NCBI RefSeq assembly: GCF_037042905.1
Contig: NC_087251.1
Span: forward strand, 41,356,001 to 41,420,000
Direction: 5' to 3'
Source: Lytechinus pictus
Taxonomy: Eukaryota
DNA: 64,000 bases
The notes under the pieces were generated by a model. That model was given only the letters and a program-made list of their open reading frames with translations. It searched no databases and was not told where the DNA came from. This document shows, piece after piece, positions 8,501 through 53,500 of the stretch. Position numbers and translations under genes: made by a program. How positions within the stretch are numbered: the stretch's first letter is position 1; every line of letters starts with the position of its first letter.

Positions 8501-11500
8501 TGAATATTTTCATGATAGTAAAATTTATCGCAAAAACCATCCATATTTGGAAAGAGCTGGGAAGCGTTTCATGAAAGGACTTGTCGAATGTGTTATCTGA
8601 CAAGTCCTGCTTTCTTCTGTTAGCGGATGAATAATGTTGATAAAACGCTCTCCTGGGAAATATTGGAATTATCTTAAAATAAATAAATATAAACTGTTCT
8701 TGCATAGCACATGTCCACTTCTTAAGCCTCCCTTAAATTTCACCCACCTCGATTAAATGAGTAACCCCACCTATTCCCCTAAGACCTCAGTACTACTCAA
8801 TATACATTTTAAATTGGTCAACTTGTTTCCCAACACATACAGCCTTTAACCCAAACAAGAAATTAAGTGATAGAAGAGAATAATGAATAATTGTTAACCC
8901 CCCCTGAACATTGCAAATCAGTTACCTCTGCAAGTTGAAGTGTAGCTACCATACCCCATTGGTCATAGTCCCACCCCATTTCATTTCTTGTTTTTAGATA
9001 ATTGTTATAATCGCCTCTGAACATTGCAATCAGTTACCTCTGCAAATTGAAGAGTAGCTACCACACCCCATTGGTCATAGTCCCATCTCATTTCATTTCT
9101 TGTTTTTAGATAATTGTTATAATCGCCTCTGAACATTGCAATCAGTTACCTCTGCAAGTTGAAGTGTAGCTACCACACCCCATTGGTCATAGTCCCATCC
9201 TATCTCTTTGAGTCCAGCCAGTCTCCTGACACCAGACCTTGCTCCATCTGCTCCTATGACCAGCCTGGTCTTGATGATGCTATCATCATCGAGGTGAAGC
9301 TGAGCCCAACTCTCCTCTTCAAACAATCCTTGGGGTGGAATCTGGATGGAGTTCAGTCTACGAAGACAAAAAGAACATCAAATATTTAACTGCTGTACAG
9401 CCAAACTATTTACGACATTTGGAGCCATCTAGTACTATCCATTGCGGTTACTTTCATAACAGTTGATGCCTTCGAGGAGCCTGCCCTTTCCATCATATGA
9501 GGGTCAGAACCTCCAGTAGGTTTCAGGGTGCTGTAAGCCCTGGGAGCATTGCTTTCACTAGTAGTTCAAATTTTTTGCTCTAATTCCAATTGATATATCA
9601 ATTGTTAATTTGCATCAGAAATTTAAAATTGATTGCAAATATTTTCTTGGGACACCCCCTTAGTAAAACGACCCCCTCACCTGCTATTAAAGGGGAAGTT
9701 TACCTAGAAGAAAAGTTTGTTGTAAAAAAAAAACAGAAAAAAATAATTAAAAATATTGGTGAAGGTTTGAGGAAAATCCATTAAACAATAAGAAAGTTAT
9801 TAGAATTTAAAGTTTGGGATTTGTGACGTCATAAACGAGCAGCTGCCCCTTATGTTGTGTAATATTAAATATGCAAATTAAAAAAGTTTTTTAATGGTTC
9901 GTGATGACTTATTTTTGTTTTATTTTTAGAAACGGTTGTGAAATGATTCATCTATTGATATACTGAAGGTACAGTAAAAACCATTTTAAATTTTCTTAGA
10001 AAATGACATTTCATTGATTTTTTTACCATAACCATGTAGTAAAGCTGCTCCACATATGGCGTCACAAAAAAAAAATTAGAATTCTAATAACTTTTAATTC
10101 TTTGATGGATGTTTCTCAAACCTTTGGCATATTTTTTAATTATTTTTTCTGCTATTTCTAAAATAAACTTTTCGTCAAGGTGAACTTCCCCTTTAAACCA
10201 GAATAGAAAAATCATAGTAAACATAGTCACAAACCTCTTCTCATACTGCACTTCAACGTTGGCTTTTACCTCTCGAAGCTGTCTGGAGAGGGCAGCATTT
10301 GTGATGTCATTCTCCACAACGTAAGCGAGGTCTTCCGATAGGTCGACTGATTGGTTGAATGTAATGAGGGCATCAGAACAAGCATCCCAGACCTGCATCC
10401 TTCGAAATGGTTTAACTCTCATCTCGGTCATGTGACGCCATGCTCCTACATCTGCATACATGTAAAGTGAATATAATTATAAACATAACATCGTAACCAG
10501 AGATGCCAAGTTCACAGACCTGGGCCCCATCTTACAAAAAGTTGCGATAGATCTGATCAATGGCAACTATGGAAAGCCAGCAACATCAACATCTATTATG
10601 CATGTTTGTTCAAAATATTTTCTAACTACACCTGTATGATGTACATTCGTGCATTCATTGTTTTCTTGAAAATTTGCTGTGCTTCTCTTTGTTTACAAAA
10701 GACATTGTGCAAATTTCCTGCAGAAAAATTATGACACTGATGGATTTCCATAGAGTTACGATCGATTGCAACAATCGTAACTGTTTGTATGACGGGGCCC
10801 AGCTATGTGTGAGATTTTCTGGGGCTTGAGGTCACAGGAATTGTGTATAATACATAGGGGGCTAGGCTGTGATGTATGCGTGAGAAAGAGATTTGAGGGG
10901 ATGTGCAAGAGACCGTTTTATGGGAGTCTCACTCTCACACATCATGCGTGAGACCTGGGAGTATCTAAGAATTACCAGAGGGGGGAGGCACATGTAAAAA
11001 AAAAATGACTAAAAATGGGAAGGCTATTATCAGATAGTGAGCATTTTCCAGTTAACTTTTGTTGGAAAAAAAAGTCACAAAACAGGCCTTAATAAAGTGG
11101 ATCTCATGCCCCATTTCACATTTGCCACCCCCCCCCCCCCCATCCATGCCTGAATATTATGCAATCTACAGTGATAGATGCTCAAATGTTATATTGGTTT
11201 ATCAGCTAAAAACAATCCCATATTATTCAGGAAGGTTGGTCTAAGCATACAAAAACCTTTAAATGACTCGTTGACAATAAAAGAATGGGTATGTACTATG
11301 TATGAGGTGAATAAAATGTGTTTTCCATATCATAATACGAGCTGTACTAAGATATAGGAAAATAGGCCTATTCTAAATGCTTAAATTTAAGAGTAACACT
11401 TCTATGACAAAAGTAAGCAGAATGAATTCTAGCAAGCTGCATGTGAGGTAAGACCCAACTTAATAAAAAAAGTTAAGATAATTTTCAGAATATTACACTG

Positions 11501-13444
11501 CCAATATCAGAGTTTATACCTCACCTGAAAGAAGTTTGACTGAGTTATGATTGAGAGCACAAACTCTGTTGCTATACTTAGATGGTAGCTCGTTCAACTG
11601 GATAGGTTTCTTTCCCTGTTCTAATAACAGGATCCTATGGTCACCAAGGGATGATTCAAAACCTATTAAAATAAACAAAAAACATGAAAATAAATTATCA
11701 AATATTACCAAAAAAAAACAAAACAAAACTACCGTATGCCTCATTCTGGGTACAAACATTTTCCAAATTTGATACTCCAATCAGAATTCAGTGAAAACAC
11801 TATTATAAATTAATCTCTTAAAAAGAATTTATAATAAAATAATGAATCTTTAATTAGATTTGCAAATTATCAACAAAAAATTCTGTTTATTTTTTTGCTA
11901 GTAGATATCAATAGAGATATTTTCTATGAAACTAAAAAAAAATCTAAATTCATAGACCATAATGTGCAAAATTTGATCTTGATATAGATCTAGTCATGTT
12001 TATCCCAAGTTAAAACTTGAGAATAAATCACAACCCTTGCAAAAGGGGGGGACAATAAATATTGTTTAGCTGGTTCCTGGAATGACGAAAAAAATTATTC
12101 TGGGCAAAAACATTACCATGTAGGCCCGACATAGTTCCAAATAAAAGCCAATTTGACACTTTTTATTTGTAAATTTGAATGCACATAGGAAGTCCACCTG
12201 CTTGGATCCACACCAGCTCTAAAGTTTTGAGTAAAGGTATTAAGGTATTAAACACATTTTCTTAAATTCACCATCTATGAAAACAAATTTCCAAAATTAT
12301 ATTTGCTTCATTGCTTCAAGCTGATGTTTGTTGAATATTTGAATTGAATTTAATTGAATTGAACTGAATCAAATTGAATTGAATAACTTTATTGTCCATA
12401 AAGGAATTTTTCTTACACTGGTTTACACACATGTAGATCTAGATACAATGTACCGTATACACAGAACAAAACAAAAATGGTAATTTGACTTTTCCTTCAA
12501 TGAAATTCTAAGAATAGATGCAAAAAAAAAGATTTAAGTTATAAATCTTTTTTTTTAATATATTTTGTACAAAATTGATAAATTAATCATAATAACCCAT
12601 AAATACCCACCAACATAAAAAGAAAGAAAAAAACTTAATGGAATTAACTTTTAAACTTTATGAAGATTTACATGTAAGGTTTTGTCAATTTGCTATATCT
12701 CAATTATTTTCCTCTTTCAATCTCTGCATAAATAAAAACAAATTAAAATTTAATTTTAAAACTGATACAGTAGATCTATACCATGTGATACCATACACAA
12801 ATCATAAAGCGAATAATCAAAATGAGACATTGATAGGCATGTGTGTGTGTACGTGTGGTGGTGGCTCTGAATTATGTTGCACATTCATAATCATATTTTA
12901 TTGACTAGGCCTAGAGATTATGTTGAAGGAAACTGGATACAAATTACATTAATTGTAAATTGATGCTCACACTAATCCCTCCCAGTCTCCACACACATTT
13001 TAAAAATAACCTTTCATTACCCAAAGCACAAGCCATGGCTTGTCCTGCCATTCCACCTCCAACAATTACAACATCATACAGCTCATCTTCGGACGTTGTC
13101 TGCCAACTTCCAACAACAGGTCTCTTTTTCTTTGGTACAGAATCAACTTTGTTCATCGTCACCATCGTTGCACCCGTCTGTCGAGGGTTATGAACTCCAG
13201 GCCTTATCTCGTTGATGGTGGACAATCCTTTTCCATGATGGTTCCAGGAATTAAAACCTGATATGCATCCATAACATCTGGAACAAAAGACCAGCTTCTG
13301 GGATGAAACTGTTAAACTGCTTGAACAAGTTGCTGGCAGAGAAAAACTGTGTATCTGTTGACCGTGTTGTTGTTGATAAGCACTCCCCCTGGCCCTGGAT
13401 ATTTGTGCAAGAATATAAAGAAGAGGCCTGCGCATCCTGTACAT
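2523..13444 (-). CDS. COQ6: Ubiquinone biosynthesis monooxygenase COQ6 (FAD-dependent, UbiH/COQ6 family), 9 coding exons, 557 aa
   Basis: Exons (minus): 13021-13444, 11525-11662, 10235-10451, 9150-9357, 8249-8311, 7368-7475, 5764-5966, 4078-4193, 2523-2719. All GT-AG, phases consistent, total 1674 nt. Motifs: [12 protein letters not shown] (FAD binding), [72 protein letters not shown]. Confidence 0.96.
2781..3362. mobile_element. TTAA-flanked MITE (Kolobok/T2-like)
   Basis: ttaa-agggattgtttcactttg ... caaagtgaaatgatcact-ttaa; imperfect TIRs with TTAA on both sides. Confidence 0.7.
4232..4516 (-). mobile_element. tRNA-derived SINE in COQ6 intron 7
   Basis: Minus strand: A box TGGCCTAGTGG, B box GGTTCGAATCC, central CACTCAACCCAGGTG...AATGGGTACCCGGTAGGAAG core, (TTA)n tail. 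Head and core are shared with 29048..29297. Confidence 0.85.
4650..5580. repeat. 61-bp minisatellite, about 15 copies, in COQ6 intron 7
   Basis: Unit caagtgggtttagccatgatggtgttagataatctgtggattagaccatctactagtagac starts at 4650, 4711, 4772, 4833 and so on; the last copies are degenerate. Confidence 0.97.
6517..6847. mobile_element. Harbinger-like MITE (GGCC termini), copy 1
   Basis: TIRs ggcccatattctgaagttgggtttaa / ttaaacccgagttcagaatacaggcc. A second, inverted copy lies at 42495..42776. Confidence 0.8.
6928..7352. mobile_element. Foldback (full-length palindromic) MITE with GGCCCG termini
   Basis: ggcccgcattcacaatggtggttttggaaacccacggttga... pairs with ...tcaaccgtgggttttcaaaaccatctttgtgaattcgggcc along nearly its whole length. 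It ends 15 nt from the COQ6 exon 6 donor. Confidence 0.85.
8887..9199 (-). repeat. About 112-bp tandem triplication of the COQ6 exon 4 3' end and splice donor
   Basis: ctgaacattgc(a)aatcagttacctctgcaa...ccccattggtcatagtccca recurs at 8904, 9017 and 9129. Confidence 0.95.
9687..10196. mobile_element. TTAA/AGGGGAA MITE (Kolobok/T2-like), family A
   Basis: ttaa-aggggaagtttacc ... ggtgaacttcccct-ttaa with long imperfect TIRs. A degenerate homologue lies at about 15892..16393. Confidence 0.85.
10522..10800. mobile_element. Harbinger-like MITE (GGGCCCC termini)
   Basis: gggccccatcttacaaaaagttgcgat ... atcgtaactgtttgtatgacggggccc. Confidence 0.75.
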
Positions 13445-13834: not shown

Positions 13835-16782
13835 ATGGCAGATGACGAGGCCACCGCAACAAAACTTTTTGGACTCCTGAATGGCATTGCTAAGCGAGAT
13901 TATCTTGGGATAGGAGATATCACTGATGAATATATGAAAGAAGAACTATTTGCAGATATTTCTAATGAAGAATTCACGACTTTGGTCACCAAATGCAAAA
14001 GCTTGATCAAGGTTAGTAGCCCTCACTTTTTTTCTTTAGTTTAGTTCAGTCCTACGCATTAGAATAGATGTTGTAATATGCATGGTGTACCTATTTCGAA
14101 GTGCTCGGCGCGGCCTCGCCTCGCCCTCGGGCCAGATTTTCTTCGCCCCTCCTCTCCCTTCTCCCCAATGTATATTCTCTACCTCTTCATTTGGTATTAT
14201 TTATGAATGCAGTTTCCCACTGGCCAACTTTGAGCAAATTTCCACATCAGAAATTGTACACAAATGTCACATTTCGAGGTAAATAAAGTCAAATGCACAC
14301 CGGTTTTCCAAAAATATCACGATCGGAAACGGCTGTATACTAATAATTCGGCTTCGATCTCGAACTTCGAAGCCATTGTTTGAATCCTCAGTCAGACATT
14401 GCTTTGCTTGGCTTCACTGTACCGTAATTTTGATATGGATTGATGTTAGCAACCAAATTATGCAAACAAAATGCCGCAGGCGAATCTTTTGGTCGCTTAC
14501 TTTACGGCGAAGCCAATCGAAGCGTGCAATGTCTGACTAAGGTTGATTCAAGCGATGTCCTCAAGATCGAAGCCAAAATACAGCCGTTCCTGATCGCAAT
14601 ATTCATAAAAGTGGTGGGTATATTGACCTTGAAATGTGATCGAGCGACTTGCTATGACATTTGTGAACAATTTCTGGTGGGGAAATTGCTCGAAGTCGGC
14701 CGGTGCAAAACTGCAGGATTATTTTATTTATTTTAAAATTGCTCATTAAAATGTGAGCGTATCGTGAATAGATCATTGATATAAAATGTCATCACTATTT
14801 TATTATCATCATAGTATTATTTTTATTATGATTTTTTTGTAATGAGTACATGTATTATTATTATGATCATCATGAACCAGGTTTATATTCGTAAGAGAAA
14901 AGTGCTAGTTAATTCTCAAAATGAAATTCCTGATCAGGACATTAAATTAATATTCATCTTTGTTATTCTGAACAGAATGTTGTCTCAATTGACATGGATT
15001 TCAACCAGCTTGAGGCTTTCTTAACATCGCAAATGAAAAAGAAAGAAGGTGGGATATCTCAAGTACAGGCAACAGCTTTTACAAAGTTTTGGAGAAACAA
15101 CAGGTCGAAAATACATGAAAAAGTGGTTTCACAGGTAATAATGTATATTTATGTCTACATTTTTTCTCAAAAGATAAACTGGTTAATCAATTAATATTGT
15201 TCAGTGATATTTATTGAAAAAAATATTTTAAAATGTAATCATCAATTTCTCTTTTCTGTGATTTTTTTCTTATTTACTGCAAAGTATTTTTTTTGGTGGG
15301 GTAGCTAAATTCTACAGAACATTTTTATTGCAAGCATGTTTCAATAAAAAAAATGAGAATGGGTTGTTGCAAGTGCATGTATAAAAAAGAACATTTTCAT
15401 GTTTATTGAGTAGTTTTATCTTGTTGAAATCACTCAGTAATTATCAATTCATCATTTCATTAATGCAGTCAATATTTGGAAACACGCTAAAAGATGTCAG
15501 CTGGAGAATCGATATAAAGAGCCAAGCCAAACATATAGACCAAATTAATATGCCAACTGCGATTGTAGAACTCAAACTGGCAAATAATAGTCATATAGAT
15601 AAGGTAAAGTATATTGAGAATATATTTCTACTTTTATCATGGTATCTCAAGTAAAATTATAGGCAAAGTTCAACTTTCAATTCACACTTAATTCATCTGT
15701 CATGACTCAATAGATGTTGTGTATTTTCATTTTTGATTGCATTTGATTTTGTTTTTCAGATTAAACTCCTAGTAGACTCTTTTCGATGATTGATAATTTT
15801 CTTGCTCTTCAAGGTTTGCTGTATTTTATTCCTGTAACTTCATCCCAATCTTTAAAGGTTAATTTATTCTGAATAAAAGAGAGTAATTTATGAGGAAGTT
15901 CACCCTGACAAATAAAAAAACTTATAATTGTAAATAAAGCAGTAAAAATTATAACAAAATATTGGTGAAGGTTTGAGGAAAATCCGTCAAAGATTAGAAA
16001 AGTTATAAGAAGTTTAATTTTTTGATTTGTGACATCATATGTGAGCAGCTTCCCATGTATTGTGAATTAATAAAAAAACAATGAAATGTCATTTTCTCAT
16101 TAAATTGAAAATTGTATATAATTAACCTTAGTATATCAACAGACAAATCATTTCACACTCTCTCCTAGGAGAAAAAAAATTAGTCATCTTGGACCATTAA
16201 CAAAAATGTAAATTCATGCATTTTATATTACATAACATATGGGGCAGCTGCTTGAACATGACGTCACAAATCATAAACTTGAATTTCTAATAACTTAATC
16301 TTTGATGGATTTTCCTAAAATATTTAGATACCAATATTTTCATTATTTTTTCTGGTATTTTTACAACAAACTTTTTTGTTGCCTAAATTTCCTGAATAAC
16401 AGGTATACCGTAATAAAAAAACATTTATTACAAAGAAAAACTTGTTTATTATATTCAAATAACATCAGTACAAAGTAAAGCACAAAGTACAATCAAATTA
16501 AATCATAAAAACAGAACCTACTGGGAAAACTTGTTATATATGATTTGTGTAGGTTCCCAAGAACAAATACAATTCAAGAAATGAATATTATTCTGAACTA
16601 GGCCTTCCTTTCAAAATATATTTACACTATGCTGACAATGGTGGATAACATTTCCTCCTATTTTGTTCCCTGATCCATAGGATCCTGATCATCTTCGGTT
16701 TGAGATGGATGAAAATCAACTCAACCAAGTTATTGGAAATTTGGAGGAGATAGAGAAACAGATCATTGCTCACTGCCAATAG
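13835..16782 (+). CDS. COMMD1: COMM domain-containing protein 1 (copper metabolism MURR1), 4 exons, 190 aa
   Basis: Exons 13835-14011, 14976-15134, 15469-15603, 16681-16782; all phase 0, GT-AG. Protein MADDEATATKLFGLLNGIAKRDYLG...DMDFNQLEAFLTSQMKKKEGGIS...LKDVSWRIDIKSQAKHIDQINMPTAIVELKL...LRFEMDENQLNQVIGNLEEIEKQIIAHCQ*. DMDFNQLEAFLT and WR(I/V)D are COMMD1 hallmarks. Confidence 0.96.
14208..14716. mobile_element. Foldback MITE in COMMD1 intron 1
   Basis: tgcagtttcccactggccaactttgagcaaatttcc pairs with ggaaattgctcgaagtcggccggtgcaaaactgca; inner arms cgatcggaaacggctgtat / atacagccgttcctgatcg. Confidence 0.75.
15892..16393. mobile_element. Degenerate copy of TTAA MITE family A
   Basis: Shares aatattggtgaaggtttgaggaaaatcc and gatttgtgac..catat..gagcagct with 9687..10196; termini eroded. 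Confidence 0.7.
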
Positions 16783-22345: not shown

Positions 22346-25300
22346 ATGTCGAATTTATATGAATTAGAAGTGTTAGCAGGGATGAAGCGGTCGGAGTTAC
22401 AAAAATTGGCAAAACAGCATGGCATCAAAGCTAATATGAAGGTATGTTAACGCAATTTCAAGTTTAAATAATTGCCTGGTCCCATCTACTTCTATTCACG
22501 TCAGAGGGATGAGATTGAAAATGAGAGGCGAGGCCGTGGCCCGTGCGATTCCGTGACCTGACGCGAGCGCGAAGTATGAAGGGGGCCCCATCGCCCCTAA
22601 CCCAGGGAGCCCAGGAGCTTACCGTGTATTTGACCATAGTCACCGGACTAGGGTGATTTAAATTATGGTCTAAAAATATTTCTCCAAATGAATTGTGAAA
22701 ACAGAAAGTACCTAGGCTAGGCCTATACAATTTACAATCATGTTAATGAATTAGCCGACCACGATTATATGGATGAAGCCAGTGAAGGTCTAATGAGTGG
22801 CAGTTTCCTGACATCTGGGCACAAACTGGAACCTCAAAAAAACGAAAATTTCTCTCAGTTCTACTAGTTCTACCCCCGTCTCGATGATCGATCGGCCATT
22901 TTTGTTAAAAATCGTCACAAAATGGCCGATCGAGACGGGGGTAGAAGGAGATAACTTTTCGTTTTTTGAGGTTCCAGTCTGTGCCCAGGTGTCAGGAAAC
23001 TGCCACCTGTTAGACCTTCATCCATATAATCGTGGTAAGTGCATAATTTCTGTTTTCACAATTCATTGGAGAAATATTTAGACCATAAATCACCCTAGTC
23101 CCGTCAGTATGGTCAAATTACACGGTAAGCCCCTGGGCTCCCGCCCACGCAGCCGCAGCTAGCCAGGACTCAGGAGGCTTCTAGAGAGTAAACATTTACT
23201 AACGTATGCTTACTCTCAACGAAGCCAGGAATTCCTTCCCATTCATCTGCACGTACCACCCAAAAACCTGAAACTTTGCCCCCGAGATTAATTCTACTTT
23301 CCTTCAAAAAGATTATCATTTAGCCCTAAATCATGTATGGGATACAACTTCATTTCCGACATTTTATTTTCAAACAAGAATTCATAAAAGAAAAATATTA
23401 TGAAAAAGACGGAAGAGACTTGCCCGATGTTTACGCCGCCATCTTGTTTCCTATTGTTCTTCCCAACGTTACGGACGCACGCGTTGGATTTGTCATTACT
23501 ACAAAAACCCGCTAGTTTACAAAAATATGTTACATTTATTCACAAGATACAAGACTTTTGAAGTTTGAACTTTTTCAATGCCACATCAAAATTATGGTAT
23601 TAACCAAATGTAAACTAAGTAGGTTATTTTGAGCATTTTATTCTCTTTAATTTGATACCAAAATCATTAAAGGGGAATCCAACCCAAATAAAAACTTGTT
23701 TTTATAAGGAAAAGAAAAATCAGACAAGTTGATAGGTGAAAGTTTGAACAATATTGGACAAACAACAAGAAAGTTATGAATTTTTAAAACTTGTAAATAT
23801 TGGTAATCACTATACCCATGGAGACTTCAAATTGGCCGCATATGGGATGTCATAGTGATGTAAGGCAAGGACTACTCTTCCATGTACTCCAGAGTCCAAT
23901 ACATATTATGGCTAAAATGTCATTTTTCCCAAAAGTTTTATTTCAAATAATATTTTTCTTTCATGAGGACATAATACAATATACTACATGGGTTATATTT
24001 GGATTACTGCCCCAGGGGAATGGGTACTTAGGAGAAAACCACAAATTCCTGATAATTAAGTATATGGCCTATGGGAAAGTTGTCCTTGCCCCTTGTCATA
24101 ATTTACTTACACAGTTGCCAATTTGAAATCTACATAGTATTAGTGAATTCAATTTTAAAGCAACTATAACTTTTGTATTGCTTGTCCGATTTCTTTCAAA
24201 GTTCCACCATTCTGTTTCATTTATTTTTCTCCTTGACCACACAGCATTTTATGGCCAAGGCTGGATTCCCCTTTAAATTTGGATAATGGGATCATATGTA
24301 AGAAATTCGATGAACTTAGATTTTTCCCTCAAAACCATGACCATTTTTGGCTGTGTGAATGCGCTGAAAAGGGCGAAATTTTTTGCTCATTGTGCGGTCA
24401 CCCTAATAATATTGATGCATGGACAAGGTGTGAAACCAATGGAAACTGTAAATGTAAGCTGCGTTGTTATAGATGACTTGTAAGGTCATGTTTTTGCACG
24501 AGTTATAGTTTTTACTTAAAGGAGAATGAAACTCTTGGAGCAAGTTAGTTTTTATGAAAGCAGAAAAATCAAAGAATAAGATCAACAAAAGTTTGAGTAA
24601 AATAGGACTAGCAATAGAAGAGTTATGAGCATTTGAATGTCGAGATCACTAATGCTATGGAGATCCACCCATTGGCAATGCGACCAAAATCTGTAATGTC
24701 ACAAATGAACAACTCTCCCCTTTTGGACACTGAAAATATACCCCAAAACATCTCTTTTTGCTCATTCTAATCATATGACAAACGATTCATCAATGATATA
24801 ATGTTGTGAAACCTCTGTACCTCTCATAAAAAAAAAACACCTCACCTTGTGATAGACTCTATAAAAGTGAGAATTTAAGTGAAATAAGTACTAAAGTAAT
24901 GAGGGAGTTGTACGTGTGTGACATCACAGATCTTGGTCGCATTGCCAATGGGAGGATCTACATGGCATTAGTGATCTCGACATTCAAATGCTCATAACTT
25001 TCTTATTATTCATCCAATCTTCCTCAAACTTTCAACAATATGTTTCTTTGATGTTTCTCTTTGATATGGATTCAGCTGGTTTCAACGGTTTCATTCTCCT
25101 TTAATAAAGTGAAAGCTTTTGTCACTCGGCCTCGGAGTGTCAATCCGTTTGATGAGCCCAGATGGCTTGGGTTGGTGTCGTGTACATAGTAGTTAGTGAA
25201 GTGTGATGGAGCCCATATGAATCATCACTAGAGCTGAGGTACAGCATATCGAAACCAATGGCCAATCAGATAATTCCTTCTATCCCCCTTTGTTCAATGA

Positions 25301-28300
25301 ATGCTGTCACTTGCACTGCGACAGCACGTCGTGCTGAATCACTACCGAATACCGATCAATGCATTATTCCTGGGCATGTAAATTACACACAAAAGACAAT
25401 GACCTATTTTCCACTTAAACAATGTTAGATTGAAGAATAATAGGCCTACTGCAACTTACAACAACTTAGTGAAAAATAAAGATCAAATCAGAACTCTTTG
25501 GATTGATAAAATTTGTCTCTTGAACTCTTGAAGTGTTGTTATCGCTGATTGTCAGCATTGAAGCTTTCCTCATTTTGTTGATATCCAGACCGATGGCTTG
25601 ATCAAGGCCCTGGCAGCAGTGGTAGACTCAAACTTAGAAGCAAGCAATAAAATGTCATCGGAAGAAGAAACTACATGTAAATCCTCAGCCTCGTCCACTG
25701 AAGATCAGGTAACTGTGTTGTATAAAAAAAAAAAACATTGAAGATTGTAAATCATATGGGCAATTCCATAAAATATGTACTTCCGACCCCCATATGTGTG
25801 GGAACTTCATGAAATTTTCTGGTCCTTATGACAGTCAGTAATGCTGTCAAATAACCATGGCTTGGTCAGTTTATGAAGTGAAGTGTAAAACTTGAGAAAA
25901 ATGGGGGTCGGATGTACAAAAAGGTTAATTATTTTATGGAATTATCCATGTCAATTATTGAAAAAAAAATCTAACAAAATGGTTAATGTGAAGCAGTCAT
26001 TTTCCATTGATTGATTCTTTATGATTAGAGTTGATAATTAAATAATATCTCTCGGTGTATTTTATATATTTAGAAAACATCTGTAAACTATAGTGATGGT
26101 TATAATATATCCTTTTTTCTTTTCTCATTTTTTGCCATTCCATGATTGTGAAGTGGGTTATCCCCAAAAGAAAGTAGGGATGAAAGTTCCCCCAAAGAAA
26201 ACAAAACTTCTCTCTGTGTATTATTGAATAAAAACTTACATTGCCAGTTATAATGTCTGTTATTTCATCTTGATATCATTTGTCATGTCTTTTTAATATC
26301 TTAGTCTGAAGTTGAAGCTTCTGAGGAGAAACCAAAAAGCGGACGGGGAAGAGGACGGAAGCAGAGGAGAGGACGCAAGGCTATCAAGGAATCACCAGAG
26401 AAAGATCTTAAGAAAGATGTGATTGCCGGCGGTGACAATGATACACTATCATCTGCTACAGAATCAGATAATCAGGTAATTACTATGAAATCACAGAATA
26501 GTTTTAAACTCCTCCCATGTGTTTTTTTTTTGTAATGTATCCGTACGTAAGAGGAGAAATAAACGGACTGATAGGGAGCAAGTTTGTCCAAATTGACCCA
26601 CTCTTGGTCAAAAAGGATCATTTGGAATGTGTAGAAGCAAGAAGGAATAAAAAAAGAGTTTTGTATTGAAGACATTCTAATTCACATCTTGATTTTTTTT
26701 TTTCAAATAAGAAAGCAATTGTTTTGATATTTATTTTTCATTTTAATAAAAAATTAAAAGGGATTTATAGTGTCCTGAAATCTACATTTTGGAAACCTGC
26801 AGGTATCCATATTATAACCCTCCTGACCAAATATTTGGAATATCATAGCAATTGGCTTTGCCAAAATTTGTTAATTCAAGAACGATAGACTCTCTTCCAC
26901 ATCATAACTATTTTCAGGCATACACATTCATATAATCTAGCGATAAATTAGAATATTTACACGCACTTTCTCCTTGCAATGTTGATTGCCATAAACAGAA
27001 GCTTTGGCTTTGTGTCTTGAAATAAGCATATTTTCTTATACATGATGCTTGATATCAAGTTTTTTTTTTATTATTCACAGGCATCAAGTGTTACAGAGGA
27101 TGAGAAGGCTTCCCCAGTCGCCAAGAAGTCTAAAGCAAAGTCGAAAGGGAGAGGAAGAGGCAGGCGAGGGAAGCAGACCAAGGAAGAAGTTTTAGAAGAG
27201 GAAATGGACCTAGTGGTATGCTACTTTGAATTCACTCCAGCAGCTCCGGGGCCCGTTTCACAAAGGACTTGCAACTGTTGTAACTTTGCCATAATGGCAA
27301 CTACCATGGTAACAGGGCTCAGCAGCCAATCAGAATCAAGGGTACCATGGTAGTTGCCATAATGGCAAAGTTACAACAGTTGCAAGTCCTTTATGAAACG
27401 GGGCCCTGGTCTAGATTTTTTTTTTGGGGGGGGGGTATTTATATAGAGGTTCTATCGCTTACTACTTTTTGTAGTAATTTCTTTAAAAGTGTATTATTTC
27501 ACCCAGTGGATATGTTTTGGTGAATTTATGCAGCATGACAAAATTACATAATCACAATCATTTGGTACATAAGTATATTATGATGCATGTGATTATCATT
27601 TAGATGTGTGATATCACAAGAATAGTTTACTTTATTTCACTTTGTTATTAACAAAATCATCCAGGCAAATTGAGCTTTGATCTAGTCAGCAGTTTAAAAG
27701 TGCTTTGTTCATTCTGTATAATAGAAAAGGAATTTTGGTTTAGTATTAAAAATTTAAAAGTTTACTTAATCACAGGTTAACTTGAATATGTCAGCCGCCC
27801 CTAATTTGAATAAATATTCATCCCAAAAGAAGTGGGGTTTTTTTTACCAGATAATGCAAAACATGTCTAATGCAAACATAGTTCTGTTGTCAGAAAAATT
27901 AACTTTGTCATAGTTACCTGTGGTTGCAATGATTTCTTTTCCAGGTTGCTCCATCAGCAGCAGCAGTGACATCCTCTCCAGCAGCCTCAGGAAGACAATC
28001 TAGAAGCTTACAAAGAACGCCTCTCGTCAGTGAACCAACATTACCAACACCACCAAATTCTGGCTCCAGGTAAAGGAACAGACTTCAATCTATCTATTTT
28101 CTTTCTCTTTATCCAAGAATATCAATATAAAATTACCCACTTACAGTGGAATAGTCAGATAATTAAAGAATTTAATGTTTGCATGTATCTGTTCTGTATT
28201 GTTTTTTATCATGAGAAAGAAAACCAATCAATGTAAAAAAAGGTAATATCTATGTCATTTCCCTAAAGTCGGTGTAAACAAATGTTATTTTGAAATGTGA

Positions 28301-31300: not shown

Positions 31301-34300
31301 ATTATTTACCTCAGTCATATTTCAACTAAGTCAAGCAGATTTATAATGTCCCTAGAGATTTTATTTTTGGACAGTTACCTGTAATATTTTGGTGTACAAA
31401 TAAATATGCATCCAAAATATAAACATGTGAAATCCAAATTGATGAATCTATGATATTCATTCACCTCCGCTCTTTAAGTTTTAGTGGTATCAACTTTAAA
31501 TGAAAGATTATACACTTCCAGTCACAATTCTCACTATTACACTATAAAAGCACTGAACAAAAGATTTGTTTCCCTGAAGCTATTCTCTGTTATTATTGTG
31601 TAATAGTACTTTAAATTGTGACTGATAGTGTATAATCTTTCATTTAAAGTTGATACCACTAAAACTTAAAGAGCGGAGGTGAATGAATATCATAGATTCA
31701 TCAATTTGGATTTCACATGTTTATATTTTGGATGCATATTTATTTGTATACACCTTGTGAATATAAAAAAGTGATACTTCTGAAAGCTGAATTGATGATA
31801 TTTGCTTCAACAAGATAATAAGATTGTAACTTGTTTGCTCTCATCCGCAGAATCTAAGAGTTGTATCCCGACCAGAGCGCAAGCAACGAAGAAGACCCCG
31901 GGCAAGAAAAACTGGTCCAAGACTCATCATGGAGCTCTGGACAAGATGGAATCCATTGATGCCTACCTCGAGAGGAAACAGAAGAGAGCAGAAGCTTTAT
32001 CTGCCACCAAGAAGCAAAAGGTGTGAAAATACACAAGGGCCATGTTGCAAGAAAACATTAGCAAACCGATTGCAGAGTTATGTTTCAAATTTACAATTGA
32101 TATGTTAATTGTAATTGGAACATATTGATTTTTTACTGCTTCTCGTGAGAAGTAGACCAGCAATCAAGTGCAACTTTGCGATTTATCTTAGATTTTTTTT
32201 TTTTTTTACTTGAAACTGGCTTGCAAATTGGTTGCAAGTTTCTTGCAATTCCCTGTAAGGGTTATCATTATCTTGTCTCCTTTAACATGTAGAACAGTGG
32301 AAATGGAAAAGAAGTGAGTTGCATTATGACTGCCCTTCCTCAATCTAAGTAACATGAAGTTGTTGTCCAAATGTTATTCATATAAGCTGATGAATGATGT
32401 GTGTAAACCATGCGATTGGGTACAAACTGAATATCAGATGTTCTGTATCAAATTTATAGATTTGCCTCCAGATAAATCCAGGTTTTTCCTTATTAATTAC
32501 ATTATTTCGCTTATCTTGTTTCTGTCATTTTAATCCTGCTACAGATCCCAGCTGTTGCTAAGCCTGTCCTGAAACCAAAAGGCTTTGACTTTGCCTCCCC
32601 CAAGCCAGGTAACAAGCCCAAGAACTTCAGCTTTGCTTCTCCCAAGCCCACAAAGGCAACCATGCCCACCAATCCCAAGTCGGCTAAGACAGTCTCCTTC
32701 AAGGTTTCCAAGCTTAAAACCCCAAAGAAGGTCACCCTGCCCAGTACCGTGGCTGCTCCCGCCGTCGAGAAGCGTAAGGCTACTCCTGGTGTCCGCAAGT
32801 CAATATCCGCACTGACTCCAAGATCAGTGCCGAGGAGATCGGTTGGAGGGGTGACTCCGGGCAACGAGAGGAAGTCTTTTGGAGGAACCAAGACGCCCTC
32901 AAGGAAATCAGTTGGAGGATTCTGCGCAGGAGATGGCAGGAAGTCACTTGGGGCTGCAAAGACCCCATCCAGGAAATCAGTTGGTGGTAAGGGACAAGTG
33001 CTCAATTATTTTTTTCAAATGTTAAATTTGCTGCCGGTCTCTGAGATAGTAGTCCGTCACCCTACTGACTTGATCAATAACTAAAATTTGATTAGTAGTA
33101 GACAATGATCCCCTTAAATGAAAAGATAACATTTAGTGGATTGCCATTGATCGCGCTAGTACTCCATGAAGTTTGATATCTTACAATAGAATTAGTTTAC
33201 CAGCAAGGAGCATATTTAAAGTAAATCTTACAACGAGTATGAACTAAATGTATTCACAGTGTCGTAATTATATTTCCTGTTTATTGTGCTTGAAGGATTT
33301 GAGAGATACATGTACTAGTAATCTTAGCTGGGTTTTTTTCTTGCATTTACTTTCCATTTAGATTTCATTTATTACTTATATAGTTTCATGTTTTAAGGAA
33401 TTCAGGAAGTATGTTTCCCTTTCATTGGGCATGGCAAGAAAATTGAGAGTAATTGAATGCAAATCAACTACAAATTTGCATAATTTAGTCAGAAGATTTA
33501 CACTTGACTTTGGGATTTTCACTTATTTAGAATATGAAAAAGTTTCCTGAAACTCCCCATTGTTACAGGGGTGTGACAGTTTACCTTTTTAGCTGATTTC
33601 ATCTTTTTTTGTGTACTTTTTTTGTACAAATATAAAGGAGAGTTAGCAATTTCAGCTAGTTCTATTAGTGGTCACTTATATCCCTGATATAAATCTGTCA
33701 CAAATAATATAGTTATTACCAGTGTAATCTAATATTTTTTGCAGGTGCTTTGACTCCGTTTGGCAAGACAGCAATTGCCACATCAGCAACCAAACCCAAG
33801 AACATGTTTGACCTCAAAGCATCTCTGTCCAAGCCTCTTTCATACAAACCCCATTCAGGTAAAATATTTTACAGATCAAGAATAATGATAGTAATGATCA
33901 TAATAATAATATGATTTATATAAAGCAGGGTGCTACATAACTTTTTAGAAGCACTTGCCCAGTTGGGCAAGTAAATTTTTAAATAGTTGGAATATACTTG
34001 CCCAAAAATCTTTTTCACTTGCCCGAAAAAATCCTTGAAATAAAAAAGTTGACCTCTTCAAAAGAAAGTTTTGCGATTTTGTAAACCATTGACCTTTTTC
34101 TCTCTTGACTGATCTACCTTGTTATTACATTTCTTTTTCCAAAGTGATTTTATCTTGCCTGCCACGACCAAAATTAGGGTCAATATCATATCATATCGAC
34201 CCTAATTTTGGTCATTCTACTGTTAGAATTTTTCTTTCCCAATTCGAGCAAGTAGTTTTGGTCTTTATTTCAAAACACTTGCCCGACTCTATTTTTTACT

Positions 34301-40075: not shown

Positions 40076-42373
40076 GGACGTTCCACAGTTAAAATGAAGT
40101 CCATGTCATTTTCACCAAATTTTGCAGAGAGTTACTTTGGTATCTATGCATTATGAAAATGCAAAAAATAATATAGGTTCATGTGCTTATTTTTTTTCTA
40201 CGGGTCTCCAAATTCGCCGTATTTGAATGATATGCAATCTTGTGCAATCAAGAGAATTATGCCCCTCTTAGACCTCACGAATTTTCAAATTCGTTTAAAT
40301 CATCTTTACTGAGTGGATACCGCATCAAACTTCATCAAATTTTCAAGATATATTACAAAGTGTATACCAAAGGGTACCAAAGTAAGAGAAAGTCTTTTAA
40401 GTGGTAAAACTATATCTATTTGGAGTCATCAGCGCCCTCATTTGGCAAGAATTGTGCAAAAACTCGGAAAAAGCAAATCTTCAAAGACGTGAATATATTT
40501 TTACTCAAAAATTAAAAAAGTATTTTGTAATCTGCACTTTTTTCAAAATCCATGTCATCTTCATCAAATTCATCCAAATTGTAGAAGAATGCATATCGAA
40601 GGTGTAGGAAAGTTAAAAATATGGGGTCCATGTGCTCGTTTTTTAACTATGAGTGTCCGAAGTGATGCGAGTTGGCATGAAAATCGCCAAAAATGCGCCC
40701 AAAACGTGCAAAAGTCTAATTATGCCGTCTAAAATGCGAATGGTTCCGTAGTTTTGCCCCCGAACACTCAAAATCCATGTCATTTTCATCATACTCTCTA
40801 GATTTGTAGAGAAATATATTCTAAAGGCATTAAAATATTAAAAATATGGGGTCCATGTGCTCGTTTTTAAACTGTCAGTGTCCAAAGTGTTGCGAGTTGG
40901 CTTGAAAATATTGAAATCCACCTAAAATGCGCCGAAAACGTGCAAAAGTCTAATAATACCGTCTAAAATGTGAATGGTTCCGTTGTTTTGCTCCCTAACA
41001 TTCAAAATCCATGTCAATTTCATCCTACTCTCTAGATTTGTAGAGAAATATATTCTTAAGGCATTAAAATATTGAAAACATGGGGTCCATGTGCTCGTTT
41101 TTAAACTATCAGTGTCTAAACGGTTGCGAGTTGGCTTGAAACAGCCCAAAATGCGCCAAAAACACGCACAAGTCTTATAATACCGTCCGAAATGTATAAA
41201 ATAAGAATGGTTCCGTAGTTTTGCTCCCAAACATTCAAAATCCATGTCATTTTCATCATACTCTCTAGATTTGTAGAGGAATATATTTTGAATAAGTTAA
41301 GATATTTAAACTATGGGGTCCATGTGCTCGTTTTCAAATTATCAGTGTCCAAAATATTGTGGGTTGGCTTGAAACAGCCCAAAATGCGCCGAAAACAAGC
41401 AAAATAATGTCTGTTAATACCGTATAAAATGCGAATGGTTCCGTAGTCTTGCTGCCAAACATTGAAAATCCATGTCATTTTCATCATACTTTGCACATAG
41501 ATACTTTAGCATCTGAATATTCCAAATATACAAAAATTTACATGGGTCCATGTGCTTGATTTTTTGCTATAGAGCTTCAAAGTTAACCCAAAATGAATGA
41601 TGTTTTTAATAATTGCGCATCCAAAAGAATTTGGCATTTTTAGACCTCACGAGATCACGATAATAATGAGTTTAAAGCTCTATAACTCAGTCAAAATCCA
41701 TGAAGATTTCATCAAATTTTGCAATATGATTAATAATTGTATCCGTAAGATGGATCATTTATTTATTTTGCTTTCAATTGTTTGCTCATTGAAGTCTTAC
41801 AACACTCTCGTTCTTAAAAATTGCGGGAAAGATATTCAACCTCAAAAAATTCAAATTTCAATAACAAACTTGAGAAGTAAAAAAATGCTGCACTTTAGTC
41901 AAAACCCATGTCATTTTCACCAAAATTTGCCCAAGTTGTAGAGGAAGCTATACCTTAGAGGGGCAAACATTAAAAAATATGGGTTCATGTGCTTGTTTTC
42001 AAACTATCAGCACTCTTATTATAGCAATTTGCTTCTTAAAACACCCGAAAACGCGCCAAAAGCTTTGTATCTATATAATTATGTGAGGAAAAATTCCGAA
42101 CCACTTTTCCATTTATTCATCATACTTTGCAGCACTACAGAGAAACTATTTTGAAATTGTAGAGGAATAAATAAAATGGTCCATGGAATAATTCAAGTTT
42201 ATTAGCTTCATAAAATAACACATCGGATCTGCAGTTAGTGCAGATAAGGAGAAAAATCAGCTCACATATAACCTACAGCTGATTAATCACCAGTTCATCC
42301 ATTGTGACGTCAGCGCGCAGAGTGTAAAATAAGTGCAGATCATGATGCGCACAAACATAACTGTGGAACGTCC
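40076..42373. mobile_element. 2.3-kb TTAA-flanked non-autonomous element filled with about 230-bp tandem subrepeats
   Basis: Perfect 16-bp TIR GGACGTTCCACAGTTA / TAACTGTGGAACGTCC with TTAA on both sides. The motifs ccatgtcattttca and gggtccatgtgctcg recur about every 225-235 bp. Confidence 0.9.
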
Positions 42374-49123: not shown

Positions 49124-49342
49124 TCAACAGCCAGAGCGCTGGGCAACCATGTTGGTAGCGCAGGTACGGGGAAGGTCCAACCCTCGATGTATAAAGTTCA
49201 CCAGATCGTTACAACCGGGGCAGCAGGGTGGGAACGCGCAGAAGATGGCGTAAAGGATGCCGCACAGGAGACCGATCGGCCAGCCAATCACGAGGAGGAG
49301 GATGATCCAAATAATGCTCCATAACCAGCCGCAGTTTGCCAT
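49124..49342 (-). CDS. Uncharacterised 72-aa hydrophobic Cys-rich membrane microprotein, paralogue 1
   Basis: Single coding exon, accATGG Kozak context, upstream acceptor (ttttttcttacatgcacaccag, exon from 49416), 26/68 ungapped identities by hand count with 56523..56750. Confidence 0.85.
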   Translation of the reverse strand: MANCGWLWSIIWIILLLVIGWPIGLLCGILYAIFCAFPPCCPGCNDLVNFIHRGLDLPRTCATNMVAQRSGC

Positions 49343-49612: not shown

Positions 49613-50156
49613 TGTTTTAAAACGATATTGATTTAAATGCACTGTGCGAATGCATGAACAAAAATTAAAAGGGAAGCCCGGCCACTCACTCCACTCTTTC
49701 CCAGCTCGCCCCTAAATATATATCTTACAGTTTCATATATTGGCTTCAATGATAACAAAATAGAGATCTGAAATGAGGTTGTTGTTTTTTTTGCCAATAA
49801 ACAAAAAATACAATAGATACTTTTCAATACTTTATTTTGGCAAATAATATGAACTGTCAGCACCAATTTGCTATCTTGGTTGCTTGCATTTATCTAATTT
49901 CTTTCAATGTATATATATATATATTGAACGAAATTAGATAAATGCAAACAACCTTTGGCAACTTTCTTGTAAATAATAAACAGACTAAAAGAAAGGAAAA
50001 TGTCCCGCCTCCTGGGTCTAGTGGTTAAGGCATTGGCGTTCAGAGGCAGGGACCCCGGTTCAATTCAGAATATGGATGACCGCTCTAAGGGACCTTGAGT
50101 GAAACTGTGCACTATTATCCTCTCATTTTCATTTCTTTCACTATATATATATATAT

Positions 50157-50598
50157 ATATTGTAAAGAAATGAATGAAGAGAACAATGGTAGGCGTAGCT
50201 TAAATCAAGGTTCCCCAGAGCTATCTACCCTTTGGAAAAATTGGTGATGCCGAAAAAATGTCTCTGCCGGGAATCGAACCCGGGCCCCCAGCTTTGAACG
50301 CCGGTGCCTTAATCCAGCTGAGGCATGGCCACCTTCCCCGACAAAGGAAATTATAATTGGTATAGTGTCGAAAATATGTCTATCTGACGGTCAATCGGAT
50401 CAGGGTCGCCCTAGCCACTAACCCGTCTCTGTGGTCTAGTGGTTAAGGCACCGGCGTTCAAAGCTGGGGGCCCGGGTTCGATTCCCGGCAGAGACATTTT
50501 TTCGGCATCACCAATTTTTCCAAAGGGTAGATAGCTCTGGGGAACCTTGATTTAAGCTACGCCTACCATTGTTCTCTTCATTCATTTCTTTACAATAT
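50157..50598. repeat. Perfect 156-bp inverted repeat (50157-50312 / 50443-50598) containing tRNA-like sequence
   Basis: The arms are exact reverse complements by eye, with a 130-bp spacer; the left arm abuts a (TA)n tract. Confidence 0.93.
50425..50496 (+). tRNA. tRNA-like gene with anticodon TCA (opal-suppressor-like; probably repeat-borne, function unproven)
   Basis: Acceptor GTCTCTG/CAGAGAC plus A73; D stem GTCT/AGGC with loop AGTGGTTA; anticodon stem CCGGC/GCTGG with loop GT-TCA-AA; 4-nt variable loop; T stem CCGGG/CCCGG with loop TTCGATT; TTTTTT at 50497-50502. Confidence 0.6.
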
Positions 50599-53500
50599 TT
50601 AAAATAAAAAGAGTTGCCAAAGCTGTTGTACATGTATAACTTCACACATTCATATATATATATATGGTTGATAATTGCATGTGTAATGTAATTCTTGCCC
50701 TCTTCTCTCTATCCCTTCCCAAGTGAGTAAAAAAAAACATTTTCAAACATCCCCATGCATAATGCATTATACACACATGCCTGAAACCAAAACTACTCAA
50801 GTAAATTGCTCCCACTCTCTCCTGGCCAGACCCTGTCATCATCATATAGTCTCTCATTTTAAGGTCAAGTTATGACTCACATATACTCAAGTATCATCAT
50901 CAAGCGATGTATACAGCCATGCAGACAAAGAGTCCCATCCTTTGTAGGAATATATATTAACACCTAGACCTTTACCATCTCATGCAAAGTCAGATTATGA
51001 TTGTGCTTTACTTTTAGGCCTAAGGTATACATAAGAATTAACTTGATTGAAATGATGGAAGATTTTCTTGCTCTGTCCTTGTCAAAATGAAAATATCTTA
51101 AAACATGAGGTATTATCATTTAGCAAATTACCAATACCTGATTATTGCATAAAATTAATGTTGAGTTTGTCTATTACTAGTATATAATCATTCATTCATT
51201 AAACTTAAATTTGTATAAAGCTCCACAGGGATAATAACTTATTGAATACATAGGCATCTATAATCTCAATGCTTCAATATAGAATATCAATTTGAAAACA
51301 AGTGAATAGAAACGATTAAATAGCAGATATATAAGAAGTGATATATATATATCTGCCTTTTAAAAATTCCACTGGCACATGTGGTAATTGATTCTGTGTC
51401 AGAAATATCCTTCCATTGAAAAACAAAATTACTGTGATATTATATTCCCCCAAGCAATGACACAAGATATAACGTATTCCCTACTACAGCAACTGGTCTG
51501 AGTGGAGAAAAGGGTGTGGTACGTTCTAAACTCTCCACCACATGGAAGCGACATTCATGCGAGTTTTCCCGGGCGGGGAGAGTATGCCAGAGAAAGAGCG
51601 CGATGGCGCGGGAAGCAAAAAATACATACACCAAAGCGAAACACACACGAAACCATGCACTTACCACGCACAGCCTTTGAATGAAGTAATCCAAATAAAA
51701 CCTTTCTAGCTTTCCAAAACTCTCAGCAACAATCGAACTGATTGAATAAAATCAGAGAGGTGAAACGAAGAGCAATGGTGTTCGCCTCCAACTGTAAGTT
51801 CTTGAATGGATGTGTTTGACTGGTGATGACAATAAAGCAATTAACCCCTAGACGTAGGCTACTTGCTGAACCAGATGCGGACTCTCTCTCGATTGCTCAG
51901 ATCGTCAGATGATCATCCGAGGGTACTCTCTTCATCTGTTAGATCGGTTGAGAGATTAAAGGGAAGTAGAAATTGCTTCCTACAATAGACTGTATACCGG
52001 GAAGAGCTGCAAGGATTTAGTAAAAGACTTTTTATGATTACTTGCAGCACTTTCATAATTATTTGAAAACGTTCATCATTCCCTCTCTATAGGCCTAGTA
52101 TTTTTCCCCAAAGATGATTCTCTGATTTTAAAAAGTTCTGAACCAATACAATAGTTCTTAATCAAAATTATCAGGGCAATATTTTCCATGATTGAACAGA
52201 GAATTATCGATTACTTAAATGTACATTAACAATTTCAAGGCCAGGGTTTGGGTAGCTGTATATGATTATTACTGAACTTATTTGATTTGACTTGCTTGTT
52301 TTTCGGAGTAATGAAATGGAAAACGATACTCAAAATCAATCAAATAAAGCAGGATGGTATAAGTTTAAAATTATTTATAACATCACAAAGTGAACTTTGC
52401 TCTGTTTGAACTACCGTATATTGCATATTTCACAAACAGAAGCATAGTGGATTCAGGAGGGGCGTGCCTCCCTATTTTATTTCATTTTTTTTTTGGCCTG
52501 AAATTTAAGTAGAGCCTCTGACTAAGTATATGCCTCCCCTTTTTAAGTGGCAGGCCTGAGCTTTTTAATTTCCCTTTTCTGTTTTTAGCGAGAAGCTTTC
52601 ATCCGGGCCTGTGCTTTTGGAATTGTCAGAAAATGGGTCTATATAGTCCCGGTCTCGATCTTCCCCGGCCTGTTTAAAAGAAGAAAAAAGTGCGAACTCT
52701 TCTTTTAGTAAGATTCAACTGTTTTCTGACACTGATATCTGAAATAACATATCTTGCCACCTTGGGATCACGAGTCTAGGTCAAGAGTTGGATAGCAAGG
52801 TGTCGTGTTTTACTAGAAACACAGCATTCTACGGTAGTGAATAGCGTGGGTTTACTATATTGCTTTCATTGTCATTGTCATGATGTTTGCACTATGATAA
52901 ACATTCGCGGGTATATTTTGTATAGGTCCTTGGAGAGTGATGTAGGCCTACTGATACTCAAACACTTCATGATTAGTATGGTGGATAGATACGACATATG
53001 TTTGCAAACTTTTCATCCCCGTTTTCATCACGAAAGTCGAAATGAGAGAAATATATGATATACCGCTAGTACGTGGCACCATGCAGAGAGAGGGGGGGGG
53101 GGCATGGGGCAAACAAACATCCCACCCCTCCTCACTTTCCTTTCCAGCTTCATGCAGATTGCAGAATTACGATTTTTTTGCTTTGCTGTCCACACGAAAT
53201 TTTGTTCATATCCACCCCATTTCCTCCCCATTCCCCCGGCCCCCTCCCCTTTTCATACCAAAAACATTAAAACTCCTTGTGCTACAAATGTATTCACTTA
53301 AAATAAATACAGGCCGACACCTGATTCTGGCAAAACACAATAAAACTAATGCAAAGATCTTAGTTAATTTTTTTTTGGGGGTATTCATATTTTTCAAAAA
53401 TTATTTTTATAAGAAAATATCTCTTTCAAACAGCAAAATATGTATATTTCCTCCCGTTGAAGGTCTACCCTCCCCCGCCCCCCCCCCCACAAAAAAGAGG

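Follow-up and report, generated by a model that had tools for sequence, protein, structure and literature searches.

A tRNA-like gene lies within nested repeat insertions

The window, the 64,000-nt stretch of Lytechinus pictus DNA analysed here (contig NC_087251.1, positions 41,356,001 to 41,420,000), carries a tRNA-like cloverleaf with anticodon UCA at 50425-50496 on the plus strand. Monomer mapping placed it in the direct arm of an insertion of a repeat, subfamily A (50313-50650, plus strand), which covers monomer positions of about 42-58 and then 80-402, with an internal deletion of about 21 nt, and ends in a TA run. Within this arm the cloverleaf is preceded by an antisense leader (50340-50424, plus strand), identified by folding and duplex energies. 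It is followed by a run of six T (50497-50502), by a conserved stem-loop (50525-50567) with a decayed hammerhead-like core at 50537-50559, recognized by motif and position, and by the 'tail' (50602-50650) between two fixed 3′ ends (monomer about 353 and 400-407), all on the plus strand. The adjoining 5′-inverted truncated arm (50154-50312, minus strand) covers monomer 195-353, stops at the short 3′ end followed by a TA run, and carries tRNA positions 19-72 at 50312-50259. It is 99% complementary to 50443-50601 and constitutes a second, 5′-truncated copy on the minus strand.

Next to this insertion lies a decayed, older subfamily B copy (50001-50148, plus strand), whose tRNA remnant at 50007-50066 still has UCA in its loop and which ends in the TA run into which the A element inserted; the (TA)n target tract that separates the two insertions spans 50142-50160. 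The B insertion also has an inverted tail-bearing arm (49923-50002, minus strand) and a short 3′-end stub (49879-49908, plus strand), and stub and inverted arm together account for a hairpin at 49878-49953. Further TA tracts were found at about 49909-49924 and 50651-50664. The second minus-strand copy, the decayed B member and the antisense nature of the leader were all absent from an earlier sequence-only reading of this DNA.

Elsewhere in the window, a GC-richer patch 0.8 kb from the element holds a 72-aa ATG-start frame (49127-49342, minus strand) with two hydrophobic Cys/Pro-rich stretches, which looks like an exon of a small membrane protein. The frame at 12944-13444 (minus strand) has a C-terminal motif typical of an FAD-binding exon, which we take to be COQ6-like. 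Pfam gave no match for three nearby frames, the 72-aa one included, and none for the 12944-13444 frame at E 0.05. There are tandem arrays at 4650-5580, 40543-41490 and 8887-9200 (periods of 61, about 234 and 112 bp, respectively) and long self-complementary stretches at 31392-31751, 6928-7352, 22605-23142, 27248-27406 and 14208-14715, probably MITE-type or PLE (Penelope-like element) fold-back elements.

The cloverleaf is complete in sequence

The segment 50425-50496 matched Rfam RF00005 on the plus strand with 60.9 bits (gathering threshold 29, E 9.8e-11, model positions 1-71) and no non-standard pairs marked, and ARAGORN called a tRNA at 50425 with anticodon tca. All 21 stem pairs (7/4/5/5) are formed, with G-U pairs at 11-24 and 29-41. 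The anticodon lies at 50458-50460 with U33 and A37, the discriminator base is A (A73, at 50496), and the Pol III terminator-like T6 run, also present in subfamily B, follows directly. The cloverleaf, A and B boxes, UCA anticodon, U33, A37, discriminator and T6 named in the sequence-only reading are thus all present. Thermodynamic folding of the 72-nt tRNA kept the acceptor, anticodon and T stems and did not keep the D stem (z -2.0); 5 of 200 shuffled sequences folded equally well. In the isolated tRNA the probability of the D stem was 0.19 in subfamily A and 0.0 in subfamily B, and the isolated anticodon stem of subfamily B misfolded (probability 0.01).

tRNA-Sec has a UCA anticodon, a UUCAAA loop, a long variable arm and a 9/4 acceptor-T fold. 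The element shares the anticodon and the UUCAAA loop, but its variable region of 4 nt leaves it without the tRNA-Sec arm, as had been claimed, and its acceptor and T stems are 7/5 rather than 9/4; a tRNA-Sec identity was rejected on these grounds. Compared with the loop of an opal suppressor (pyrimidine 32, U33, purine 37), the element departs at position 32, which is G in both subfamilies. Position 32 is normally a pyrimidine in tRNAs, and is so in the three host tRNA genes compared.

The repeat is very probably a non-autonomous Penelope-like element

The repeat has a monomer of ~407 bp with no apparent coding frame. Searching the genome (812 Mb, 368 contigs) with a 291-nt query gave 1,387 candidates, and among the 40 scored the full-length matches were 98-100% identical. 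An exact 34-mer running from the D arm through the anticodon loop matched 1,818 times (control 0), bearing out the claim that a repeat family carries the tRNA, and a pattern that left the anticodon arm free matched 1,981 times. A tandem array on contig C2 has a 406-bp period, with at least 41 units listed. The repeat is a young, protein-less family of roughly 2,000 copies. No relatives were found in metagenome contigs with the strict pattern, nor in viral contigs; four loose-pattern metagenome matches were rejected as relatives, three being unrelated SINE-like heads and one a tRNA-Ile.

The monomer was mapped on 28 loci, namely the subfamily A loci among 90 after redundant overlaps were dropped, a sample biased to the copies nearest the query. 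Terminal 3′ ends fell at monomer 350-355 (16) or 400-407 (22, one of them a variant tandem junction) in 38 of 41 cases and elsewhere in 3, defining two fixed 3′ ends about 50 nt apart, and 33 of the 41 reach TA within 3 nt. The 36 5′ ends at these loci were spread over monomer 55 to 363. Many insertions have an inverted 5′-truncated arm, and the tail is frequently confined to one of the two arms. Tandem or 5′-inverted architecture was seen in the window and at loci L006, L013, L014, L016, L017, L020, L026 and L028, and arrays on C11, C18, C4 and C2. For subfamily B, a search from the 50001-50148 copy (69 candidates, 40 scored, 30 loci fetched) revealed the same PLE ends as in A. At locus L009 (184-607; C18 near 10290370) an element of 424 bp, bounded by long terminal inverted repeats, sits exactly at an array monomer junction.

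Variable 5′ truncation, fixed 3′ ends with an optional tail, tandems and inversions, and insertion into (TA)n, which Neptune, Hydra and Naiad also target, make up PLE architecture of the kind given in section 6 of PMC8557442. In PMC11167929 the tail is explained by two internal reverse transcription (RT) start sites. We conclude that the repeat is very probably a non-autonomous Penelope-like element. A TRIM/Helenus identity was rejected, the 5′ ends being ragged and the flanks being TA runs or inverted arms rather than fixed LTR termini.

The genome contains intact Neptune-, Hydra- and Poseidon-like elements, named here by domain order and motifs. No sequence shared beyond chance with the monomer was found in 30 GIY-YIG loci and 17 UTR stretches of autonomous elements. 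A motif search for the hammerhead core CUGAnGA..GAAA was positive in 7 of the 17 UTR stretches, an interrupted core at L101 not being counted. In five families the distance from this core to a 3′ end is 59-81 nt, and two of the five have a longer end as well, giving tails of 36 and 66 nt. In two others, each with a single end seen, the distance is 138 and 159 nt. The seven hammerheads align poorly. Subfamilies A and B have a decayed hammerhead-like motif about 60-65 nt before the short end, with tails of 47-59 nt; position and motif suggest that it is a hammerhead relic. The same motif search found no canonical core in A or B on either strand. Rfam hammerhead models matched neither the relic nor the intact Hydra hammerheads, so this test is blind here.

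Several related arrangements were also observed. The L062-L073 3′ UTR belongs to a young family of the Neptune-like kind; the motif search found no canonical hammerhead core in its pLTR. At L086 (1094-1298 onward) a subfamily A 3′ end is followed by a short TA run and then by a 5′-truncated Neptune-like copy in the same direction, a junction that fits shared targeting or template switching. A tandem array at G000:C15:1879586-2014742, with a period of about 2.8-3.2 kb, has a 535-aa frame that matches only the RT/thumb half of a Hydra-like protein and is possibly an array of an endonuclease-less PLE. The subfamily B monomer start (e.g. L039, L048, L060) has a CUGAUGA word followed by a 16-nt near-palindrome, both absent from A; the word might be a second hammerhead half-core.

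Stem pairing is kept between two subfamilies

Consensus monomers of subfamilies A and B, built from 75 and 51 segments, respectively, align end to end. The tRNA is identical at 62 of 72 positions with 0 indels, against 115/162 (71%) upstream and 115/145 (79%) downstream, with 50 gap columns in these flanks. Of the ten tRNA changes, eight fall in stems and every one of these keeps pairing, with double changes at 2-70, 6-66 and 28-42; the search for compensatory stem changes that the sequence-only reading had proposed was thus rewarded. All ten changes are transitions, and pairs 6-66 and 28-42 could have arisen by CpG decay on both strands.

In simulated nulls all pairs were kept in 3-16% of cases, and in 0.3-2% when at least eight changes fell in stems; under strong CpG weighting the probability was 11-16%. 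UCA stayed unchanged between A and B in 47-81% of simulations. In view of these nulls, the comparison of the two subfamilies provides moderate evidence for selection on the fold and no evidence for selection on the UCA anticodon. The anticodon conservation that was to have distinguished a functional tRNA is therefore what chance would be expected to give, and a lineage with UCC has also spread (see below).

An antisense leader and two predicted RNA folds

In both subfamilies the 85 nt upstream of the tRNA are a degenerate reverse complement of the tRNA plus its downstream flank, minus the anticodon arm. In the window copy, the partners of leader 50340-50424 are the D and T arms, the 3′ strand of the acceptor stem, the T-run and sequence beyond it; the anticodon stem-loop alone is left out. 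The resulting rod has a predicted energy of -84.3 kcal/mol, with probability 0 for the acceptor, D and T stems. Leader duplexes had energies of -76.0 and -69.6 kcal/mol for cognate partners, -58.1 and -61.0 for crossed partners and -38 and -35 for shuffles, and the sense strand was better than the antisense strand by 13-15. The downstream arm matches its own leader, and position 70 changes in concert with its partner in each of the two folds, cloverleaf and rod.

In reads from organism C three leader differences are near-fixed, and with them the rod is retained or strengthened (-85.1 to -89.4). Among the variants in these reads (40 of 96 rows, a few rows being peculiar to the reference copy), the flanks (333 nt) held 38 and the tRNA (72 nt) held 2, a weak bias (p 0.03). 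Counting against the second fold, G-U-compatible differences barely exceeded A-C ones in a rough alignment (11 vs 5), and the isolated anticodon stem of B is mispredicted. These models predict two RNA states, a cloverleaf in a short Pol III transcript and a rod in a long transposition template, and the two folds are supported by covariation. It is probable that the leader originated as a PLE-type fold-back and later became a permanent part of the unit.

In an unlikely, though still appreciable, alternative, an old tRNA-Gly gene and a fold-back duplicate of it were caught in a PLE monomer as neutral passengers. Selection would then act on the rod and the Pol III boxes only, and the intact acceptor stem would reflect luck and symmetric CpG decay, as the null under strong CpG weighting allows. 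Individual copies do decay freely, anticodon included: 4 of the first 100 listed of the 1,981 pattern matches have a non-UCA anticodon, 25 of these 100 belonging to one tandem array. However, the double change at 2-70 is not of the CpG kind, position 2 pairs marginally if at all in the rod, and the tRNA is free of indels while its flanks are not.

The pairing also bears on whether the cloverleaf might have replaced the dead hammerhead as punctuation, with RNase P and RNase Z cutting tandem transcripts into unit-length templates in the manner of mascRNA. The decayed hammerhead-like core beside a retained cloverleaf is what this would predict, and Rfam detects a weak likeness to mascRNA-menRNA (28.9 bits vs a gathering threshold of 42.5). 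In folding, however, the probability of the acceptor stem fell from 1.0 without leader to at most 0.01 with 20 nt or more of leader, the anticodon hairpin alone surviving. Furthermore, multimers of at least 40 units exist, and 5′ ends do not pile up at tRNA +1, as detailed below. We regard punctuation by the tRNA as very unlikely.

The UCA anticodon and UGA decoding

Among the three host tRNA genes compared, Gly(UCC) and two Glu, Gly(UCC) was closest to the element (53/72 to B and 49/72 to A), sharing an identical T arm, G1-C72, A73 and, in B, C2-G71. The Glu genes reached 44-48. Against B alone the two Glu genes reached 44-45. Some host tRNA outside these three may be the true ancestor. A Glu origin by register shift, which would fit the D loop and T arm, was rejected, Gly(UCC) fitting better overall. 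On a Gly origin, UCA arose from UCC by C36 to A, accompanied by C32 to G. B and host Gly(UCC) differ at 19 positions, with 6 double changes and all stems closed; the null probability of 0.002, valid only if Gly is the ancestor, argues against the neutral passenger. Host tRNA clusters at G000:C13:22080297-22158142, C16:2592762-2598840 and C17:25857114-25881053 contain 25 Gly(UCC), 11 Glu(UUC) and 18 Glu(CUC) matches.

A search with the UCC anticodon gave 51 matches, of which 26 are host Gly genes and the other 25 have the A body. The 11 UCC copies fetched had a mean identity of ~92% and shared variants in 6/8, 5/7 and 4/8 of those covered, a sign of an older side lineage having spread without UCA. 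By eye, without a tree, UCC looks derived, young A having the B state at two sites.

An active UGA suppressor would require the short Pol III RNA to be matured, charged (most likely with Gly) and able to read UGA, either for a partner ORF or by loosening host termination. The complete cloverleaf with U33, purine 37, A73 and T6 is consistent with this possibility, as are UCA in both subfamilies and a leader that seems built to carry an intact tRNA gene through an RNA stage. There is also a precedent of a kind in some Naiad PLEs of clams and spiders, which PMC8557442 describes as having in-frame UGA, though used with SECIS elements. Against it stand G32 in both subfamilies, the anticodon constancy, which is not significant, the spread of the UCC lineage, and the harm that about 2,000 active copies would be expected to do to the host.

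Target ORFs gave no encouragement either. The element itself is non-coding, which leaves the proposed readthrough of its own ORFs unsupported. A stop was found in 10 of 142 matches in a GIY-YIG search, 7 of them TGA, and those inspected represent single-copy decay; for instance, a Cys codon present in L096 and L097 is TGA in L095. A candidate programmed TGA at C15:5903404 was rejected as a single-copy Cys-to-TGA change. The best Neptune- and Hydra-like PLE copies have no TGA in their open frames, and none of the best 150 RT matches has more than one TGA. A SECIS in the downstream stem was rejected by eye: B has AUGA..GA, but its helix is short and shows no apical AA, and AUGA is missing from A. 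Suppression of UGA by the element is accordingly quite improbable. The idea that the tRNA primes reverse transcription is not supported either, since PLEs, as described in PMC11167929, use target priming and need no first-strand primer.

Transcripts and 5′ ends

None of the runs listed as holding the sequence was recorded as RNA. In two poly(A) raw-read runs from organism C, 118 and 152 reads of 11 million matched the repeat, on both strands, with no start or end pile-ups and with some reads crossing the monomer junction. Such reads fit passive transcription within host RNAs and say little about a 72-nt Pol III product; their small number and presence on both strands would suit a neutral passenger. 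No CCA-bearing loose end was seen among the poly(A) reads listed, a weak test that counts somewhat against the suppressor. A contig depth peak over the tRNA in run X1 was set aside because contigs of mixed origin were summed and the signal may be DNA.

Copies joined to TA and starting at tRNA +1 numbered 1 in the genome and 0 for a control site, TA-joined ends being rare at any single site. Among the 36 mapped 5′ ends, 3 lie at most 5 nt from +1, two of which are probably one duplicated event. Given the lack of a pile-up at +1, Pol III read-through from this position is probably not the main source of template. Whole-element transcription by Pol III is characteristic of tRNA-derived SINE2 elements, which have A and B boxes and begin at tRNA +1. 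A SINE2 identity was rejected, the element having 176 nt upstream of the tRNA, T6 right after it and no 5′ ends piled at +1. As the boxes and T6 are kept in both subfamilies, the sequence-only reading's separately transcribed Pol III unit stood as a plausible component of the element, and an insulator or promoter role for it is a possibility.

A proposed mechanism

We consider it probable that the element is a PLE carrying a tRNA gene that is masked, cis-acting and de-tuned for decoding. By analogy with known PLE biology, a Neptune- or Hydra-type PLE protein would move the element in trans, nicking (TA)n and starting RT at either of two internal sites in multimeric RNA, which would produce the fixed ends, tail, tandems and 5′ inversions. 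The Pol III gene in the element would derive from tRNA-Gly(UCC). RNA started at +1 and stopped at T6 is predicted to fold as a cloverleaf. Within the long template, the D and T arms, the 3′ strand of the acceptor stem and the U-run would instead be paired with the antisense leader, and RNase P and RNase Z would presumably spare the template as a result.

The tRNA gene is most likely used in cis, as a TFIIIC/Pol III site that may keep each unit open and transcribed. Its short product could be processed as a tRNA and yet be de-tuned by G32 and by A36, where the Gly identity base would be C36; about 2,000 copies could then be tolerated. UCA would then be a by-product of drift rather than a suppressor function. 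Intact stems would not be required, however, if the tRNA gene served as a promoter and nothing more. One rather unlikely extension is that the tRNA is a working cargo hidden by the co-evolving leader and acts in trans once freed, as a weak Gly-inserting UGA suppressor for a partner element, a decoy or a second-strand primer replacing the lost hammerhead. The element bears on two PLE questions, namely the purpose of the hammerhead and the transcription of non-autonomous tandems. It accounts for about 2,000 false tRNA-Sec or suppressor calls in the genome. It also offers a compact natural two-state RNA, cloverleaf versus rod, with covariation in both states.

Relation to known systems

Titles and abstract starts in the open literature revealed no PLE with an intact leader-masked tRNA and no transposon-borne suppressor; subscription journals, Repbase, Dfam or supplements may hold the family. 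If the short RNA were charged, the element would be a eukaryotic transposon with its own recoding tRNA, of which we found no description in that literature.

The nearest precedent for a tRNA plus hammerhead is Sm-alpha/Sj-alpha of schistosomes, high-copy elements with a tRNA-derived part (Gln-TTG) and a hammerhead that cause thousands of false tRNA predictions, according to PMC2770079. By comparison with that description, the present element has a decayed hammerhead, a complete, compensated cloverleaf, an immediate T6 and a leader mask. Helenus/TRIMp3, as presented in PMC10886601, is likewise short and non-autonomous; this retroelement has an internal tRNA-like Pol III promoter and sometimes occurs in tandem arrays. 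It has LTRs, PBS, PPT and 4-5-bp TSDs, however, and mostly lacks a foldable tRNA, whereas our element inserts into (TA)n and shows inversions, tails and ragged 5′ ends.

Non-LTR retrozymes, which are non-autonomous PLE derivatives in animals (PMC7229834; bioRxiv 10.64898/2026.07.22.740005), resemble the element in their non-coding ~400-nt monomer, tandem and dispersed copies, relation to PLEs, strongly self-paired RNA and hammerhead position near the 3′ end. They are defined by an intact type I hammerhead core in every unit and by abundant circular RNA of monomer size. The element differs in its full tRNA gene with T6 and its antisense leader, the word 'tRNA' being absent from the preprint text, and it falls outside the retrozyme definition because neither A nor B has a canonical CUGAnGA..GAAA core. 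The non-autonomous Chlamys PLEs such as MRC1 (PMC8557442, section 10) are also non-coding, with pLTRs and head-to-tail multicopy insertions in microsatellites. They generally share 3′ sequence with an autonomous family, and that section mentions no tRNA. The element thus works like a non-LTR retrozyme or an MRC1-type element without an intact hammerhead, and adds a tRNA-gene-bearing, hammerhead-dead form to the non-autonomous PLEs.
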